Shown here one piece after another: positions 31,802-54,366 of a stretch of DNA of 64,000 nucleotides. Below the pieces are notes generated by a model that worked only from the letters and a program-made list of their open reading frames with translations, was not told the origin of the DNA and searched no databases. The first letter of the stretch is position 1, and each line of letters opens with the position of its first letter. The stretch is from an uncultured delta proteobacterium (lineage in GTDB: Bacteria; Desulfobacterota; Binatia; UBA9968), in contig CAVSHR010000004.1 in assembly GCA_963727625.1 (NCBI GenBank), positions 1,024,001 through 1,088,000 of the forward strand, written 5' to 3'. Both the position numbers and the translations under genes were made by a program.

Positions 31802-32485
31802 TCATGCAGGATAGATGCTTTCATTCCAGAGATGAGTGTTTTCCGAGCTTAGAGCCTCAATTTCACCGGTGAATTTGCCAGCGTAAGCTTCAGGCGGCTC
31901 GCGCAGCGCATAGCTACCATCGGCTTCTATCAGATCACGATGTGCGGCTTTGACACCGAGCTGACTCTTGACGTTCTCGACAAACGCCAAGCTGCCAACC
32001 GCAATCGCTTCCGACCAGCGATCGTCGCGGACGGCCAAGCCGTTCTCCAGCCCTTGTTCGGCCCACTGGCGGCGTGCTCTTTGAAAACCCCTCGAATCCG
32101 TAATCCCGCTCAACTCGCTCAAACTCTCTAAATCGATTATGCCGTAGCGCTTGTGATCCTTATCAAAGATGATCGCTTTGTAACGGCCATGGAACAGGTG
32201 ACCGATCTTTCGGTGCTTGCGGTTAAAATATTGGGTGTAAGATTGCTGCAGCCCTTGCATAAAACGGGATAACGGCTGTGAACCGCTCTCCAACAGCAAA
32301 TGAACATGATTGGGCATCAGGCAATATGCATAGACCGTTACACCCCATCGTTTCCGATACCGGCCCAGTCTTTCCAAATAGGCCTGGTAATCGTTCGGGT
32401 TTAAAAACGTCTTCTGCCTATGGTTCCCGCGCACGATCACGTGATACAAAACTCCGGGAGCCAAGAGCCTTGGACGCCGCGCCAT
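31802..32485 (-). pseudogene. Chimeric RAYT/Y1 HUH transposase (N-half fused to the C-terminus of another RAYT-like gene)
   Basis: YHVIVRGN, YCLMPNHVHLL, GHLFHGRYK; the catalytic YIHLNP segment is missing; upstream end motif GAAAGTCTGAACCCC at 32537-32551. Confidence 0.75.
32154..32231. repeat. 78-bp direct repeat, copy 1 (copy 2 at 38188-38265)
   Basis: 75/78 identical by eye; encodes YFNRKHRKIGHLFxGRYKAIxxDKD. Confidence 0.9.
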
Positions 32486-32653
32486 GCCCTCCCCAATAAC
32501 AGCCGTGCTATGAAATTGTCTAGATTGGCTAGATTTGAAAGTCTGAACCCCTTCCCCCTAATGGTCAGGCGACTTGTTTCCTAATACAATCATCTCCCTT
32601 TCGGCCAGCGCGCGAAACCGATCAATGATTAGACAAGCAAAAAATCAAAATTA

Positions 32654-35229: not shown

Positions 35230-35565
35230 CTTGCGTTTTCTTTTTCCCTCTCCGTTTATTGCACGTCTTCACCTATCGCGACTTTGAATTGACTGTACGT
35301 TGCCAAGCGATCATCGAAACTAGCCATGAAAACCTATTTTCTGCATCAGCAACTCGTAAGCGATTTCCATGACTCTCTCATATGATCATGAATCACGTGA
35401 GTCAATACGAAAAGCGATTTTTCTCCTAGCTTTCCGTCTTGTCAAGTTGAGTTAAAAAGAGCTGGATCCCCTCGATTCTCGGTGAAAACTCGACAGTTGG
35501 AAAGTGCGCAGCCCAATGAAAGGATAAGGCCAAAGGGAAACCAGGATAAAAGCCCGGGGCGCAGG

Positions 35566-37581
35566 GTAGAGTAGAGAACAGGCGCGACCTTCGGTAGGCG
35601 GATCCTTGGCTGTAGCCGTCGTTTCCAACTTCGTGCCCGTTTAGGATCGTCCCTGGAACGCAGTCCTGTTCCCCCTCATCAAACCGTACTTGCAGGTCTT
35701 CCGCATACGGCTTTCCGATCATCTTCATCTCAAGGCATACGAACTCGCCGATAACGAGCATAGCCTGGTATGGCACATAGTCCCAACTCCTTATAGAGCC
35801 GGGATGCCGGCCATTGCATCATGCCATTGCCCTTACGCTGCCGCCGCGTTTGCAGGTACTTGCGCATACGCTGCTCTAGGAAGAACTGCTGGCGGGCAAA
35901 CACTCGCGTGCTGTTGTGCAGGTGAAAGTAATTTACCCATCCCTGCACATACCGATTCACCCTCTCGACCACCTGCTGCTGGGGTAAACAGTGGGTCCAT
36001 CGTGCTGTTAAGCTGCGCACTTCATCGCGAAAGCGTTGTTCGCTTTTCCGCGAGGGCTCAACCACAACGATCATCTTGCCGCTCTTTGAACTTCTCGGGC
36101 GCCCAAAACTAAACCCGAGAAATTCAAAGCTCTGCTGGCGCGCATCCAAGACTTGCGTCTTGTCTTCGTTTAACTTGAGCGCCAGTTCCTCCAACATCTG
36201 CTTGACCTTTTCCCCGGTCCGCTCCACTCTGCCACGCATCAAGATGACAAAATCATCGGCATAGCGGACAAGTTCGGCCGCCAAGCCCGTGGACTGACAG
36301 TATGAACGGAACATCCGGTCAAATAAGTTCAGATAGACATTGGCCAGCAACGGTGAGATCACTCCGCCCTGCGGGGTTCCCCGCTTAGGCTTGCGAGTCT
36401 GCCGCTTGCCTTCCTGGTCTTCTTCCACCACCGCCGCACTCAACCACTGCTTGATCCAGTTTAAGATGTGCCGGTCGCTGATCCGTTCGGCTATCATCTT
36501 AATCAGCTTATCGTGTGCAATGGTGTCAAAATACTGCTGAAGGTCGGCGTCGAGCACGTAGGGGTGCGCGTTGTAGAGCGCTTGTCGTACGGCTCCGACT
36601 GCTTGGTGGGCATCTTTCTTGGGCCGAAACCCATAGCTACAATCCTCGAAGTCCGCTTCAAAGATCGGCTCGATGACCAGCTTTACCGCCATTTGCGCTA
36701 CTCGATCCCGGATCGTCGGTATCCCTAACGCCCTTTTCTTTCCATCGGCCTTGGGAATATAAACCCGCCGCACCGGTTGCGCTCGGTAGCTCTTCTCCCT
36801 GAGTTCCTGCTTCAGCTTTGCCAAAAACTTCGCTTCGCCTTCTCCAGTCTCAATAGACTGGAATGTCTCCCCGTCGATGCCGGGGGCTCCCCCGTTGGCT
36901 CGCACTAACCGATAGGCGTGTTGGAGAATGTCCTCGCGCCAGACCTTGTCCGCCAACAGATAAAAGCGAAACTTCGGCTCTGTCTTGGCCTTGAGATACA
37001 GTTTGCGCTGGAGGTCTCGAATCTTATCCGGTGTTCCTAGCCTCACGGCAATCACCTCCTCCTTCCCTCGTTAACAAACTCGATGAAAGCAGGGCGCCTT
37101 CCCTCCACCGGCGTTACCCGGTCTCTTAGGTACTATTCGCCCCTCCGACTTCTCGTCTGCCGGGCTCGGACTTCGTTTCCTTATACCGAGCCCTTTGCGG
37201 CCATCACCCGCGACATACGAGTTCTCCCGCGTTTCCCAGTAAAACTTCCCTCACATCCCGTCCCGACGACCCCGGAAAGCTCATCTGCGTCCTTTTTCGG
37301 CTAGTCCCACACATAACGGCGGCCTTCCCCATCTGACCACAGGGTCGGCGCTTTCACTTTCAAGTAACGAGGCTCTATGGGTTCCTGGTTAGTACGGCCT
37401 GTGAGTTTGCGATTCTCCGTACACTCTTTTCCTTCCTCCTCCTTTCTCTTCGATTCGGAGTTTTCTCGATCCGCTCAGTCTTGAGAGTCGCCTCGCAAAA
37501 CCGGATCTTCGCTAGCGGGGTGTGCCGATAATTCCCCGCACCGGACTTTAACCGGTTAGCTTCACTGCTTCCGCGGCGCAC
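35566..37581 (-). mobile_element. Complete group II intron (2,016 nt)
   Basis: 5' GTGCG at 37581; EBS1 stem GCCGACCC...GGGGAAGGC near 37322-37349; domain V AAAGCCGTATGCGG...GTACGGTTT at 35681-35714; domain VI ending CTCTACTCTAC at 35566. Confidence 0.9.
35730..37055 (-). CDS. ltrA: Group II intron reverse transcriptase/maturase without an endonuclease domain
   Basis: APGIDG, LGIPTIRDR, SYGFRP, GTPQGGVISPLLANVYL, RYADD, FLGF, GWVNYF. Confidence 0.95.
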   Translation of the reverse strand: MIAVRLGTPDKIRDLQRKLYLKAKTEPKFRFYLLADKVWREDILQHAYRLVRANGGAPGIDGETFQSIETGEGEAKFLAKLKQELREKSYRAQPVRRVYIPKADGKKRALGIPTIRDRVAQMAVKLVIEPIFEADFEDCSYGFRPKKDAHQAVGAVRQALYNAHPYVLDADLQQYFDTIAHDKLIKMIAERISDRHILNWIKQWLSAAVVEEDQEGKRQTRKPKRGTPQGGVISPLLANVYLNLFDRMFRSYCQSTGLAAELVRYADDFVILMRGRVERTGEKVKQMLEELALKLNEDKTQVLDARQQSFEFLGFSFGRPRSSKSGKMIVVVEPSRKSEQRFRDEVRSLTARWTHCLPQQQVVERVNRYVQGWVNYFHLHNSTRVFARQQFFLEQRMRKYLQTRRQRKGNGMMQWPASRLYKELGLCAIPGYARYRRVRMP

Positions 37582-37592
37582 GATCAGACTTT

Positions 37593-38265
37593 CTATTCTT
37601 GACAATCTGCAGCCAATCGTTTCGCCCGCTTCCGCAACGCTTCCTCCCCACCCATGCGATCGGCGATGCGCGAAACTAAGGAACTCACCGTTGCCGCATC
37701 TCGCCCCAAACACCTCGCCACTTCTTTAAGTTTATAACCCAGCCGCCGGATCAACACGTAGCCGACCAGCGCCCGCAATTGAGAAATCTTCCAGCCTCGG
37801 TCCGCTCCTCCAAGCACCTCCGGCTCGACCTCCGCCGCTCGCGCCGCAGGGCGAAACGCCACGCTCAACGGCTTCTTACGCCGGGGGATCTCCTCCTCGT
37901 TGCCTTTGCGCTTGAGCTTTTCGGCAAATCCCTCTGCTCCCAAAAACCGCTGCTCCCCTGCCTGGTAATAATCCTCCCGATGCCCGTCCTTTAAACCGTC
38001 CTGGACAAAGCGCTGATATCCGGCCCCTCCGCCAACCATCTCGAGCACTCGATCGGACGTCAACACCTCGCTTACACGACCCCCCATGTAATCGCGATGG
38101 CCGCTATAGGGATACTCCTTAATCTTCTGAACCATCTTCGCCCTGAGCGGGTTGAGATGAATGTAGCGAACCAGGCTTAATAGACATTGATCCTTATCAC
38201 AGACGATCGCTTTGTAACGGCCCTGGAACAGGTGACCGATCTTTCGGTGCTTGCGGTTAAAATAT
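37593..38265 (-). pseudogene. RAYT/Y1 transposase C-terminal half with HTH
   Basis: GHLFQGRYK, VRYIHLNP, YPYSGH, YKLKEVARCLGRDAATVS; stop codon runs into the end motif AAAGTCTGATC. Confidence 0.75.
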
Positions 38266-38483
38266 ACGGTGCCGATCTCTCCGGCTAACTCAGCAGTGCA
38301 GATCGTTCCGAATCCTGGAATGGACAATAAAATCTTGGCCATCTTGGAATCCTTGGCGATTTCTTTAATCTTAGCCCTCAACGCTTTGATCTTCTCGTCG
38401 AGTTCAAGACACCGTTGCGCGTCTTCCTGGATCATTTCGCTGACCCAATCAACCCCTTCGCTGAAATGGGCTCGCTTCTGCAC
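38266..38483 (-). pseudogene. IS110-family transposase internal fragment, fused in frame to the RAYT half
   Basis: ELDEKIKAL...KILLSIPGFGTICTAELAGEIG. Confidence 0.6.
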
Positions 38484-45693: not shown

Positions 45694-46346
45694 TTAAGGG
45701 AACCGGCTACTTTTCTTCTCGTTTCGCGGCCGCCCGCGCGGGCGCAACGTGCGAGCGAGTCCGAATACCGTCGCCACTTCCGCTTGCCAATGTTTTTTTC
45801 CGAAGGGTCTTTGCCGATTCAAATATTCACGCACCGACGTTAGTTGATCGCCGTTTATCGGTTCGGTCAACAGATCGTCAGAACTCACAGGACATGGGGT
45901 CAATCAGCTCCGGCCGCCGCAGACTCGACCAAAACCATTCCTGCGCCGTGCTCGACAACCCAGCGCGAACCCGGATCTTGCAACACGTCACGCAAAGCAG
46001 CAATCAAGTGTTCATTGCGCTGAACTGAAAAACTCTTGAAGCGGCCCTGCCAAACATGTCCGCTGCCACCGAAACGTTTGTGATAATGCCGCACTTGGCT
46101 CGTCAGCAGCCACTGCATGAACTGACTCGGTGCGGCTTGACGAGCAGGTTCGAGAACGAGGTGGAAGTGATTCGGCATCAGACAGAAACCGAAAAGCTTG
46201 ATCTGATGTCGCGTCTTCGCTTCAGCCAGCAGGGATAGAAAGACTTTGTAATCTTGTGACTTGTGGAATACCGTGGCGCGCCCGTTGCCCCGGTTGACGG
46301 GATGGTAGACGTAACCGCCCTGCTGTCCTCGTGGAATTCTCGGCAC
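45694..46346 (-). pseudogene. Frameshifted RAYT/Y1 transposase
   Basis: YHPVNRGN, FCLMPNHFHL, GHVWQGRFK; the C-terminus LRPRGRPR lies in another frame (45694-45903). Confidence 0.8.
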
Positions 46347-48021: not shown

Positions 48022-48272
48022 GTCATATCCCTCTTCGGTCGGTGACGGGTAGCAGTAGTCTTCCGTCTACGCAATATCGACTGCCGACCGAGTCTTGTCA
48101 ACGTTGGAATTCGATCCAAATCATATTGCACCGGGGCATGAGGTCCCTAAATTTCAAGATTAAAGACCAGACCCCAATTTTTTGCATTGGCTTGAAAAAG
48201 CTGCCTCTAAGCCTATAAACGATGCCGTTTATGCCACCTCGTGCTGTCAAATCAAGAAGTTGCCTTGGCGGT

Positions 48273-49152: not shown

Positions 49153-49156
49153 TCGT

Positions 49157-49394
49157 CCGAGAATTTCGTGAAAATCTCCGCGATCCTTCAGCAAACTCGG
49201 CCGGCGCAACGGTCGTAAGTGCTCAAAGTCTTCCCGATCTTGCCGCTCGTGGGGGGCTCAGAAGCTGCCGCGCTATCGGCTTACGTTATCACTCGATTTC
49301 GTCTTGCAGGCGGTTTGGATCGACGCAGCTCCCGCGAGAAGTGACCGCAAAAAGTACGTCTGGACAGATTGTCATGATTTCAAATCCAGACCCT
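49157..49394 (+). repeat. About 240-bp dispersed repeat, copy 1 (uninterrupted)
   Basis: Highly similar to 54142-54366 plus 56211-56224; ends TGTCATGATTTCAAATCCAGACCC. Confidence 0.85.
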
Positions 49395-53981: not shown

Positions 53982-54141
53982 CGGCAGACCTGCCTTTTCG
54001 TCTTTGAGCGAACCGTTTGACTCTACCGTAACCACACCGGGACGTGCAGCGGACTGCCGTCATGCCACTTCACCAAGAATAACTCATGGCTGACCCCGAG
54101 TTTTGCCCCCAATCAAAAAGTAGCGTGTCTCCTTTTCTCGG

Positions 54142-54366
54142 CCGAGAATTTCGTAAAAAATGCCGCGATCCTTCAGCAAACTCGGCCGGCGCAACGGTCG
54201 GAAGTGCTCGAAGTCTTCCCGATCTTGCCGCTCGTGCGGGGCTCAGAACATGTCGTGCTATCGGCTTACGTTATCACTCGATTTCGTCTTGCAGGCGGTA
54301 TGGATCGACGCAGCTCCAGCGAGAAGTGACCGCAAAAAATAAGTTTGGACAGATTGTCATGATTTC
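54142..54366 (+). repeat. About 240-bp dispersed repeat, copy 2, interrupted by IS1182 (resumes at 56211-56224)
   Basis: Matches 49157-49381; continues AAAGCCAGACCCC after the IS. Confidence 0.85.

Follow-up and report, generated by a model that had tools for sequence, protein, structure and literature searches.

The window analyzed here, a stretch of 64,000 nucleotides from an uncultured delta proteobacterium of the Binatia lineage (GenBank assembly GCA_963727625.1, contig CAVSHR010000004.1, positions 1,024,001 to 1,088,000 of the forward strand), contains a complete group II intron next to a truncated transposase gene of the TIRYT family. We propose that this IIB-like, endonuclease-less intron inserted by retrohoming, two bases from the outer tip, in the right terminal inverted repeat of a TIRtron, an element composed of a TIRYT gene and terminal inverted repeats, and we assign to this reading a probability of about 0.8. 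Comparison of intron copies from several genomes and from metagenomes shows a code of base pairing that links intron loops to repeat tip, an insertion point two bases from the tip, the use of both element ends, and sublineages in which exon-binding sites 1 and 2 (EBS1 and EBS2) have been retuned to the tip variants TGACC, TGACA, and TGTCC. An earlier note on this DNA had proposed an intron lineage whose EBS1 matches the motif at the ends of Y1-transposase elements and which homes into these ends, a proposal that our results support.

The features of the intron and of its exons are as follows (IBS, intron-binding site).

35566..37581, minus strand: complete group II intron, 2016 nt, from Rfam matches and from an identical copy with unrelated flanks
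35730..37055, minus strand: intron-encoded reverse transcriptase/maturase, 441 amino acids, YADD present, from Pfam and NCBIfam
35681..35713, minus strand: domain V, a hairpin whose bulge has 2 nt and whose loop has 5 nt, from the Rfam alignment and a fold of -14.8 kcal/mol (z score -2.9)
35566..35680, minus strand: long domain VI (~115 nt), its bulged A lying 7 nt before the 3' end, from folding and the Rfam Intron_gpII alignment
37332..37338, minus strand: EBS1, GGUCAGA, in the hairpin loop 37331-37341, from its Rfam position, its unpaired state in RNAalifold, and covariation with IBS1
37361..37365, minus strand: proposed EBS2, ACUUG, in an internal loop immediately 5' of the stem of EBS1, unpaired in RNAalifold and covarying with the exon
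37582..37592, minus strand: 5' exon from the stop codon to the intron, with IBS1 TCTGATC (37588-37582) and IBS2 AAGT (37591-37588), the inner part of the right repeat tip
35564..35565, minus strand: first two bases of the 3' exon, CC, completing the repeat tip TGATC/CC, from comparison of copies and the CC start of 19 of 28 distinct 3' exons

The genome that contains the window (G000; 15 contigs, 6.6 Mb) yields three matches to the intron. Copy 2 (G000:C3:13893-15908) is identical to the window copy over exactly 2016 nt and has different flanks, and copy 3 is a 3' fragment (G000:C4:186100-186920, query 1194-2014, 99%). Since the flanks of the copies part directly outside GTGCGCC...CTCTAC, the intron is delimited as 37581..35566 on the minus strand. 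The lower limit of the range first given, 35566..37593, is therefore retained, whereas its upper limit took in the last base of the stop codon and the 11-nt 5' exon. Two full-length copies that are 100% identical, together with a fragment, show recent copying of the intron and, like the at least 39 sites in the related genome G219 (see below), are indirect evidence of its mobility.

The hallmarks of a mobile group II intron are all present: a 5' GTGCG, domains I and V, and a domain VI that has a bulged A. The Rfam models group-II-D1D4-6 (37549-37260, 65.4 bits for a cut-off of 49) and Intron_gpII (domains V and VI, 35715-35566, 41 bits for a cut-off of 40) both match on the minus strand. The open reading frame (ORF), situated in domain IV, combines a reverse transcriptase with a maturase (X) domain, as seen from Pfam RVT_1 (9.6e-39), Pfam GIIM (6.8e-13), and NCBIfam TIGR04416 (400 bits for a cut-off of 300), and no HNH or other endonuclease domain of Pfam was matched in its 441 amino acids. 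With its intact reverse transcriptase and complete ribozyme domains, the window copy looks functional. We describe the intron as IIB-like and endonuclease-less, and it also has features resembling those of the IIE and IIF varieties: the domain V loop of 5 nt and the domain VI of ~115 nt as folded. According to passages of PMC3753933, a 5-nt domain V loop marks IIE and IIF introns, and long domain VI stems are a IIF trait. Shortened forms of the intron were also seen. Two derivatives devoid of the ORF, L091 (G204:C64) and L092 (G313:C9), in which domains I-III are joined to domains V and VI by deletion of the reverse transcriptase, occupy the same kind of site as the full introns, and a contig from sequencing run X20 carries a deletion joint, 35753->36977, that removes most of the reverse transcriptase ORF.

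The repeat tip and its pairing with the intron

The neighbor of the intron is a TIRYT/TIRtron, which has terminal inverted repeats, and not a classical REP-associated tyrosine transposase (RAYT) with repetitive extragenic palindromes (REPs). Passages of PMC3733652 define TIRYT genes as RAYT-like genes with terminal inverted repeats sharing GGGGWSAS, and describe such repeats also as singles, dimers, or groups; in passages of PMC6006769, Bac_DnaA_C, HTH_23, or HTH_28 tails are attributed to subclass 2.1 of the TnpA_REP-like proteins. A six-frame search of G000 detected 32 TIRYT-family loci, the full-length members of which associate Y1_Tnp with a Bac_DnaA_C-like helix-turn-helix (HTH) domain (Bac_DnaA_C, 1.6e-9 to 1.5e-4) and reach 75-87 bits on NCBIfam REP_Tyr_transpos, for a cut-off of 80. 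When the ends of 17 paralogues are read from the inside outward, YTGAC[C/A]CC is found inverted at both ends in 10 of them and at one end in 5, the repeats of the remaining 2 being absent or degenerate; in near-identical paralogues, identity ends right after this tip. Inverted repeats with such tips flank TIRYT genes in relatives as well. The sequence GGGGTCAG fits GGGGWSAS, and the intron splits its reverse complement as CTGACC/CC. In the window, only the right repeat is kept, with the tip TGATC/CC. On every point tested, the paralogues agree with the TIRtrons described in passages of Di Nocera et al. 2013 and Quentin et al. 2018, whereas the window's own gene is a truncated remnant.

The earlier note had referred to abundant RAYT/REP ends. 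The ends are indeed those of Y1-transposase elements; they are not palindromic REPs but the terminal inverted repeats of TIRtrons, and they are not abundant in this genome, in which CTGACCCC is observed 114 times versus ~320 times expected from base composition. Inverted GGTCA-type pairs number 98 in G000, with control cores giving 6 to 591. A REP/REPIN population in G000 was considered and rejected, as neither k-mer counts nor the scan for inverted pairs showed a high-copy family. To our knowledge, the mobility of TIRtrons has never been demonstrated.

The stop codon of the transposase gene, TAG at 37595-37593, is followed by AAAGTCTGATC/intron/CC, in agreement with the initial observation that the intron lies 11 nt past this stop and splits the exon before CC. 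The EBS1 loop, TGTGGTCAGAT (37341-37331), is closed by GCCGACCC/GGGGAAGGC and is aligned by the Rfam model to that model's own loop ugUugucagaag. In the RNAalifold consensus of 22 domain I sequences, the loop (columns 264-273) is unpaired above a stem made of columns 255-263 and 274-282, and a stretch just 5' of this stem (~columns 235-248) is unpaired as well. Hence EBS1, which the earlier note had placed in this stem-loop as GGTCAGA (37338-37332), stays there in both the Rfam model and the consensus fold, covaries with the exon (see below), and pairs with the exon TCTGATC through one G-U, just as had been stated.

The pairing was evaluated on 98 intron-exon junctions, 18 from the own and related genomes and 80 from a metagenome scan, of which 87 are distinct. 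The pattern used for the scan consisted of intron 5' sequence only and was therefore blind to the exon. The distinct 5' exons end in TGACC (41), TGACA (11), TGTCC (9), TGATC (6), or other pentamers (20), and the 28 distinct 3' exons, one of which (L107) comes from an unpublished genome, start with C in 26 cases and with CC in 19. The homologous introns, for which unrelated flanks would have argued against the proposal, thus have related ones. Over the 56 distinct junctions with a readable loop, EBS1 pairs with a mean of 6.57 of the last 7 exon bases (7/7 in 38 junctions and 6/7 in 15), compared to a mean of 5.80 and a maximum of 6.11 when the loops were shuffled 1000 times among the sites. Matched variants of EBS1 and exon are GGTCAAG with CTTGACC, GGTCAGG with CCTGACC, TGTCAGA with TCTGACA, and GGACATA with TGTGTCC. 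EBS2 covaries with the exon too, ACUUGC being found with GCAAGU (L086) and AUACUAA with UUAGUAU in the GGACATA sublineage (L146, L199, and L213). In the window copy, EBS2 forms 4 base pairs only (ACUU with AAGU), and IBS1 and IBS2 share the T at 37588. EBS3 was not located in the intron.

Insertion sites in genomes and metagenomes

Two of the three intron copies in G000, copy 1 in the window and copy 3, are at right ends of TIRYT genes. The 3' exon of copy 3, CCATCGGTT, matches the flank of a paralogue on contig C9, TGACC/CCATCGGTT; a truncated TIRYT gene lies upstream, and the gene of an IS5-like DDE transposase has replaced the sequence between this gene and the intron fragment. Five of the six occurrences of AAGTCTGACC in G000 are at TIRYT repeat tips.

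Y1 genes had been expected beside the junctions of homologous introns, and they were found there in the anticipated geometry and at both element ends. In the metagenomes, a TIRYT gene abuts 10 of the 59 junctions with at least 400 nt of upstream sequence, 7 through its right end (C terminus, sense) and 3 through its left end (N terminus, antisense). At L097, a locus in a relative, a TIRYT gene ends 20 nt before the intron. Eight metagenome loci carry an inverted partner of the terminal 11-mer (at most 1 mismatch) 65-370 nt upstream, for an estimated chance rate of ~0.005 per locus, and 7 of these 8 have no TIRYT gene and look like gene-less miniature elements. A search that started from the transposase in five related genomes gave 39 TIRYT matches at 30 loci, a few of them overlapping. 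At 4 of the 30 loci, all in the genome G219, an intron is inserted exactly at TGACC/ in the repeat tip, and in one case the TGA is the stop codon of the gene. Units of TIRYT gene plus intron are present in duplicate in G219, for instance at C4:729 kb and C2:402 kb.

G219 (6.0 Mb, 7 contigs) contains at least 40 copies of the first 300 nt of the intron among 67 candidates, a number that is unusually high for a bacterial group II intron. The 40 scored copies correspond to 39 distinct junctions, with an EBS1 that reads GGTCAAG at 29 and GGTCAGA at 8, the last two being GGTCAGG or unreadable. A TIRYT gene adjoins the intron at five junctions, of which 3 are right ends and 2, including a weak one, are left ends. 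No fewer than 13 exons are copies of repeats that flank TIRYT genes of G219: 8 of them reach at least 15/23 identity in the region -30..-8, a level met by 5 of 2000 random TGACC sites, and the other 5, of the ATCAACCAAAGATTTGACC type, were judged by eye, the automatic extraction having missed that repeat. The union of these categories gives at least 15 of the 39 sites associated with terminal inverted repeats.

One might argue for a chance nesting of mobile elements amid insertion-sequence debris, with no specialization for a target, given that the TIRYT gene of the window is chimeric (see below), that an IS5-like insertion has truncated copy 3, and that copy 2 lies in an ISL3 element. Yet the insertion point is the same to the base in dozens of independent loci with differing flanks, and EBS1 covaries with the insertion site, so that the comparative data contradict chance nesting and leave it very improbable.

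Several findings weigh against homing into TIRtron tips. Within 1 kb, neither a TIRYT gene nor an inverted partner was found at 42 of the 59 metagenome loci, and the same holds for ~24 of the 39 G219 junctions; the upstream neighbors there are ordinary genes, toxin-antitoxin pairs, IS3-type genes, and other insertion sequences. Similarity among sites in the region -35..-14 is barely above that in a control region, and L008/L084 and L102 carry unrelated exons. In G000, the motif is rare and five perfect sites are unoccupied, and copy 2 lies, in antisense orientation, within the transposase gene of an ISL3 element at CGCCTGGCC/CA, where pairing with EBS1 is nonetheless kept by means of one G-U. 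In G219, EBS1 pairing is in many cases imperfect at -6 and -7, which suggests relaxed specificity or decay after insertion. A small GTCA...TGAC hairpin is weakly enriched, with 10 of 85 sites versus 4.9% of controls. Lastly, no exon-exon joint across 35566-37581 was detected in RNA-library contigs, which come from relatives; the contigs, obtained from three RNA-library runs and one DNA run, hold only pieces of relatives and are uninformative on splicing either way. No sequencing run contained half or more of the sampled words of the region.

The diversity of the neighbors, the lack of a TIRYT gene or partner at most junctions of G219 and at 42 of the 59 from metagenomes, and the weak upstream similarity between sites would also be expected if the target were a short generic intergenic motif, [C/A]AAG-N-YYTGACC/C, with TIRYT ends representing merely one subset. 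We nevertheless regard a generic target as unlikely, in view of the five AAGTCTGACC sites out of six that are TIRYT tips in the own genome, of the junctions at both ends of TIRYT genes in exact inverted geometry, of the recognizable copies of TIRYT-flanking repeats that form at least 13 of 39 G219 exons (8 automated, 5 by eye), and of a second intron lineage, with a reverse transcriptase ~45-46% identical, that is also found at TIRYT ends and in inverted pairs. Because TIRtron repeats have been published as singles, dimers, and groups, it is plausible that the junctions without a TIRYT gene are solo repeats.

A further alternative, by which the intron would behave like IIC introns, is that it reads a DNA stem-loop at the element end and not the sequence of that end. 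The presence of GTCA(A)-N7-14-(T)TGAC in many repeats would suit this idea; against it stand the Rfam class D1D4-6, the 7-nt EBS1, the covarying EBS2, the low frequency of the 4-bp arm given above, and the fold of the window repeat, which is no better than that of shuffled sequence (z score -0.6). Recognition of a stem-loop is thus scarcely credible in our opinion. A conserved terminal hairpin as a defining feature of the sites was dropped on the same two counts, 10/85 versus 4.9% and a z score of -0.6. Homing by base pairing into the repeat tips of TIRtrons remains the reading that we prefer.

The second lineage (L012-L016 and L020-L026, on contigs of metagenome-assembled genomes of Alphaproteobacteria) is inserted at ...CTGTCACCGT/AAT. 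Just upstream in L013 is the end of a TIRYT-like gene; in L014, the start of a TIRYT gene lies antisense ~54 nt upstream; and in L015, L020, L024, and L025, an inverted partner, GGTGACAGTGCA, is found 50-70 nt upstream. The habit of homing into such ends may therefore be older than the lineage described here, or convergent.

At L086 (G381:C13), the intron interrupts an apparent coding sequence at AAGTCTGAC/CC. The interrupted gene, from a reading of its translated flanks, presumably encodes a four-helix-bundle protein, and the locus would represent an ectopic insertion into a mimic of the repeat tip.

Many TIRtron tips are directly followed, on their outer side, by 2-5 tandem direct repeats, whose unit consists of the tip or its last bases plus 6-15 nt of the adjoining flank. 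Such repeats, for example TGACCCCAAATGAC-TGACCCCAAATGAC and four copies of CCGTAATAAC, are present at the ends of G000 paralogues, at L257, L262, L264, L266, and L281, at L125, L107, and L118, and in the 3' exons of L020-L026. They create additional target sites for the intron. The arrangement looks as if the tip had been cut and rejoined repeatedly, and we know of no description of tandem repeats outside TIRtron tips.

Transposase remnants around the intron

The window holds pieces of TIRYT genes on either side of the intron.

37593..38271, minus strand: C-terminal two thirds of a TIRYT gene with a DnaA_C-like HTH, from tblastn matches to >15 paralogues from residue 72 on
38272..38483, minus strand: 5' piece of foreign origin, in frame with the TIRYT remnant to which it is fused, with 97% DNA identity to G000:C5:956783-956998
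31802..32551, minus strand: separate N-terminal half-gene of a TIRYT (31802-32485; Y1_Tnp, 1.1e-14) and a degenerate left repeat tip

The ORF that precedes the intron, 38483..37593, is a chimera in which the first 70 residues are foreign and the match to paralogues starts at residue 72. No Y1_Tnp match was obtained for the window gene at 37593-38483, the N-terminal part with the HUH motif being missing, and the match to Bac_DnaA_C is weak (E value 2.8e-4; 21 bits, below the cut-off of 31.5). The foreign piece matches Transposase_20 with an E value of 0.16 only and possibly derives from an IS110-family element, an origin weakly suggested by this match. A 216-nt version of the piece adjoins TIRYT genes at two loci of G000, namely, the window (38272-38483) and C5:956783-956998. 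Elements of the IS110 family are known to insert into REP sequences (in part from a table of PMC1525189). By analogy, a second type of element, IS110-like, may target TIRYT ends as well.

The earlier note had also listed terminal motifs elsewhere in the window. The motif at 32541 is real: it is part of a degenerate left tip, GTCTGAACCCC, at 32541-32551 on the plus strand, 56 nt upstream of the Y1_Tnp half-gene 31802-32485(-), and resembles the left repeats of paralogues. Those at 48167, 49386, and 54089 did not hold up, since no Y1 gene or repeat structure is found at any of them; 54089 reads ATG GCT GAC CCC, a possible gene start, and the 399-amino-acid ORF between 48167 and 49386 has no match to a Pfam family.

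The two TIRYT pieces, 31802-32485(-) and 37593-38271(-), are 5 kb apart on the same strand and in the wrong order. An overlap of 84 nt between the two shows 94% identity. They are remnants of two different copies, an arrangement that suggests rearrangement between elements. Another Y1_Tnp gene, at 45694-46346(-) (E value 2e-15), is apparently frameshifted, with its C-terminal part in ORF 45694-45903. The TGACCCC at 45902 was examined as a repeat tip and rejected, as it lies inside this frameshifted Y1-like gene. A 229-nt segment occurs twice in the window, at 49153-49381 and 54138-54366, with 92.6% identity.

Proposed mechanism and comparison with known systems

EBS1 (GGUCAGA) and EBS2 (ACUUG) base-pair with the inner tip of the repeat, AAGU-CUGA[C/U]C, and in our working model thereby direct retrohoming. 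Since GGGGWSAS is common to many TIRYT subfamilies and is inverted at both ends, the lineage finds sites at both ends of the elements and in their gene-less derivatives. Such a site is extragenic, so that insertion would cost the host nothing, and a copy at the right end could be transcribed by read-through from the transposase gene; in the window, that gene is an already truncated chimera. In this sense the repeat tips may be the safe haven that the earlier note had suggested. Inverted sites would moreover double the number of targets and guarantee one on the lagging-strand template, which endonuclease-less introns such as RmInt1 and RmInt2 prefer.

Whether intron and TIRtron are functionally coupled, beyond mere nesting, is a separate question, raised by the position at which the repeat is split, two bases from the tip and exactly where a Y1 enzyme would be expected to cut. 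Such coupling seems rather unlikely to us, and it could take two forms. The intron might immobilize the elements that it enters and so restrain TIRtrons throughout the genome, much as RmInt1 is said to block ISRm2011-2; or the TIRYT protein might mobilize units made of repeat plus intron, which would explain the solo sites and the at least 39 sites in G219. The habit of the second lineage and the tandem duplications of tip plus flank fit with repeated cutting and rejoining at the split position.

Each documented specialization of a group II intron is informative on the evolution of target choice, and in the present case a whole lineage with covarying EBS1 and EBS2 tracks the one motif common to poorly understood tyrosine-transposase elements. 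The lineage represents a natural series of retargeted introns, and its junctions are an independent marker of true TIRtron ends. It also offers a tractable case in which two elements dependent on single-stranded DNA interact at replication forks. The at least 39 sites of G219, moreover, make this genome an unusually strong example of a proliferating bacterial intron.

Group II introns specialized on other mobile or repeated DNA are already known, their targets being terminators, attC sites, ISRm2011-2, and the repeats of ISRm17. In the literature searched, which comprised mostly journals outside subscription, no report was found of group II introns at RAYT, TIRYT, or REPIN ends. The passages of PMC3733652 make no mention of group II introns (0 matches for "intron"), and in those of PMC6006769 the word occurs twice, for intron homing and in a reference to IStrons.

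IIC introns, which insert at terminators and attC sites, are likewise specialized on a repeated, extragenic, and structured DNA motif. They have no EBS2 and a short EBS1, and they read a stem-loop. Part of these features is given in the abstract of PMC1702495. Unlike them, the intron described here possesses both EBS elements and reads sequence, and the features that define the IIC class are not found in it. IStrons of Clostridioides difficile consist of a group I intron fused to an IS200/IS605 element into one composite unit. They resemble our case in that an intron goes together with a Y1-transposase element, whereas here a group II intron independently invades the repeat tips. The only earlier link of a group II intron to extragenic repeats that we encountered concerns Pseudomonas putida KT2440, in which 2 of 9 copies are associated with REPs (table of PMC1525189) and no specialization was claimed.

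The closest precedent is provided by RmInt2 in the inverted repeats of ISRm17 of Sinorhizobium meliloti, together with RmInt1 in ISRm2011-2. RmInt1 belongs to class D. The intron described here appears to differ in class: it matches Rfam D1D4-6 and has IIE/IIF-like features. Passages of PMC4615759 report that all RmInt2 copies are in the inverted repeats of ISRm17, and those of PMC4615759 and PMC5894124 state that homing into inverted repeats doubles the targets and guarantees one on the lagging strand, and mention relaxed specificity. Like RmInt1 and RmInt2, the Binatia lineage is endonuclease-less and has its homing site within a mobile element, uses both ends, and shows relaxed pairing in a high-copy host. 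The host of RmInt2 is a DDE insertion sequence, whereas here it is a Y1 (HUH) TIRtron, whose tip motif is common to many TIRYT subfamilies and gene-less derivatives and is met in many genomes by covarying EBS1 variants. The scale is also larger than for RmInt2, as it takes in several genomes of Binatia, numerous metagenome contigs from soil and sediment, and a single genome with at least 39 sites.

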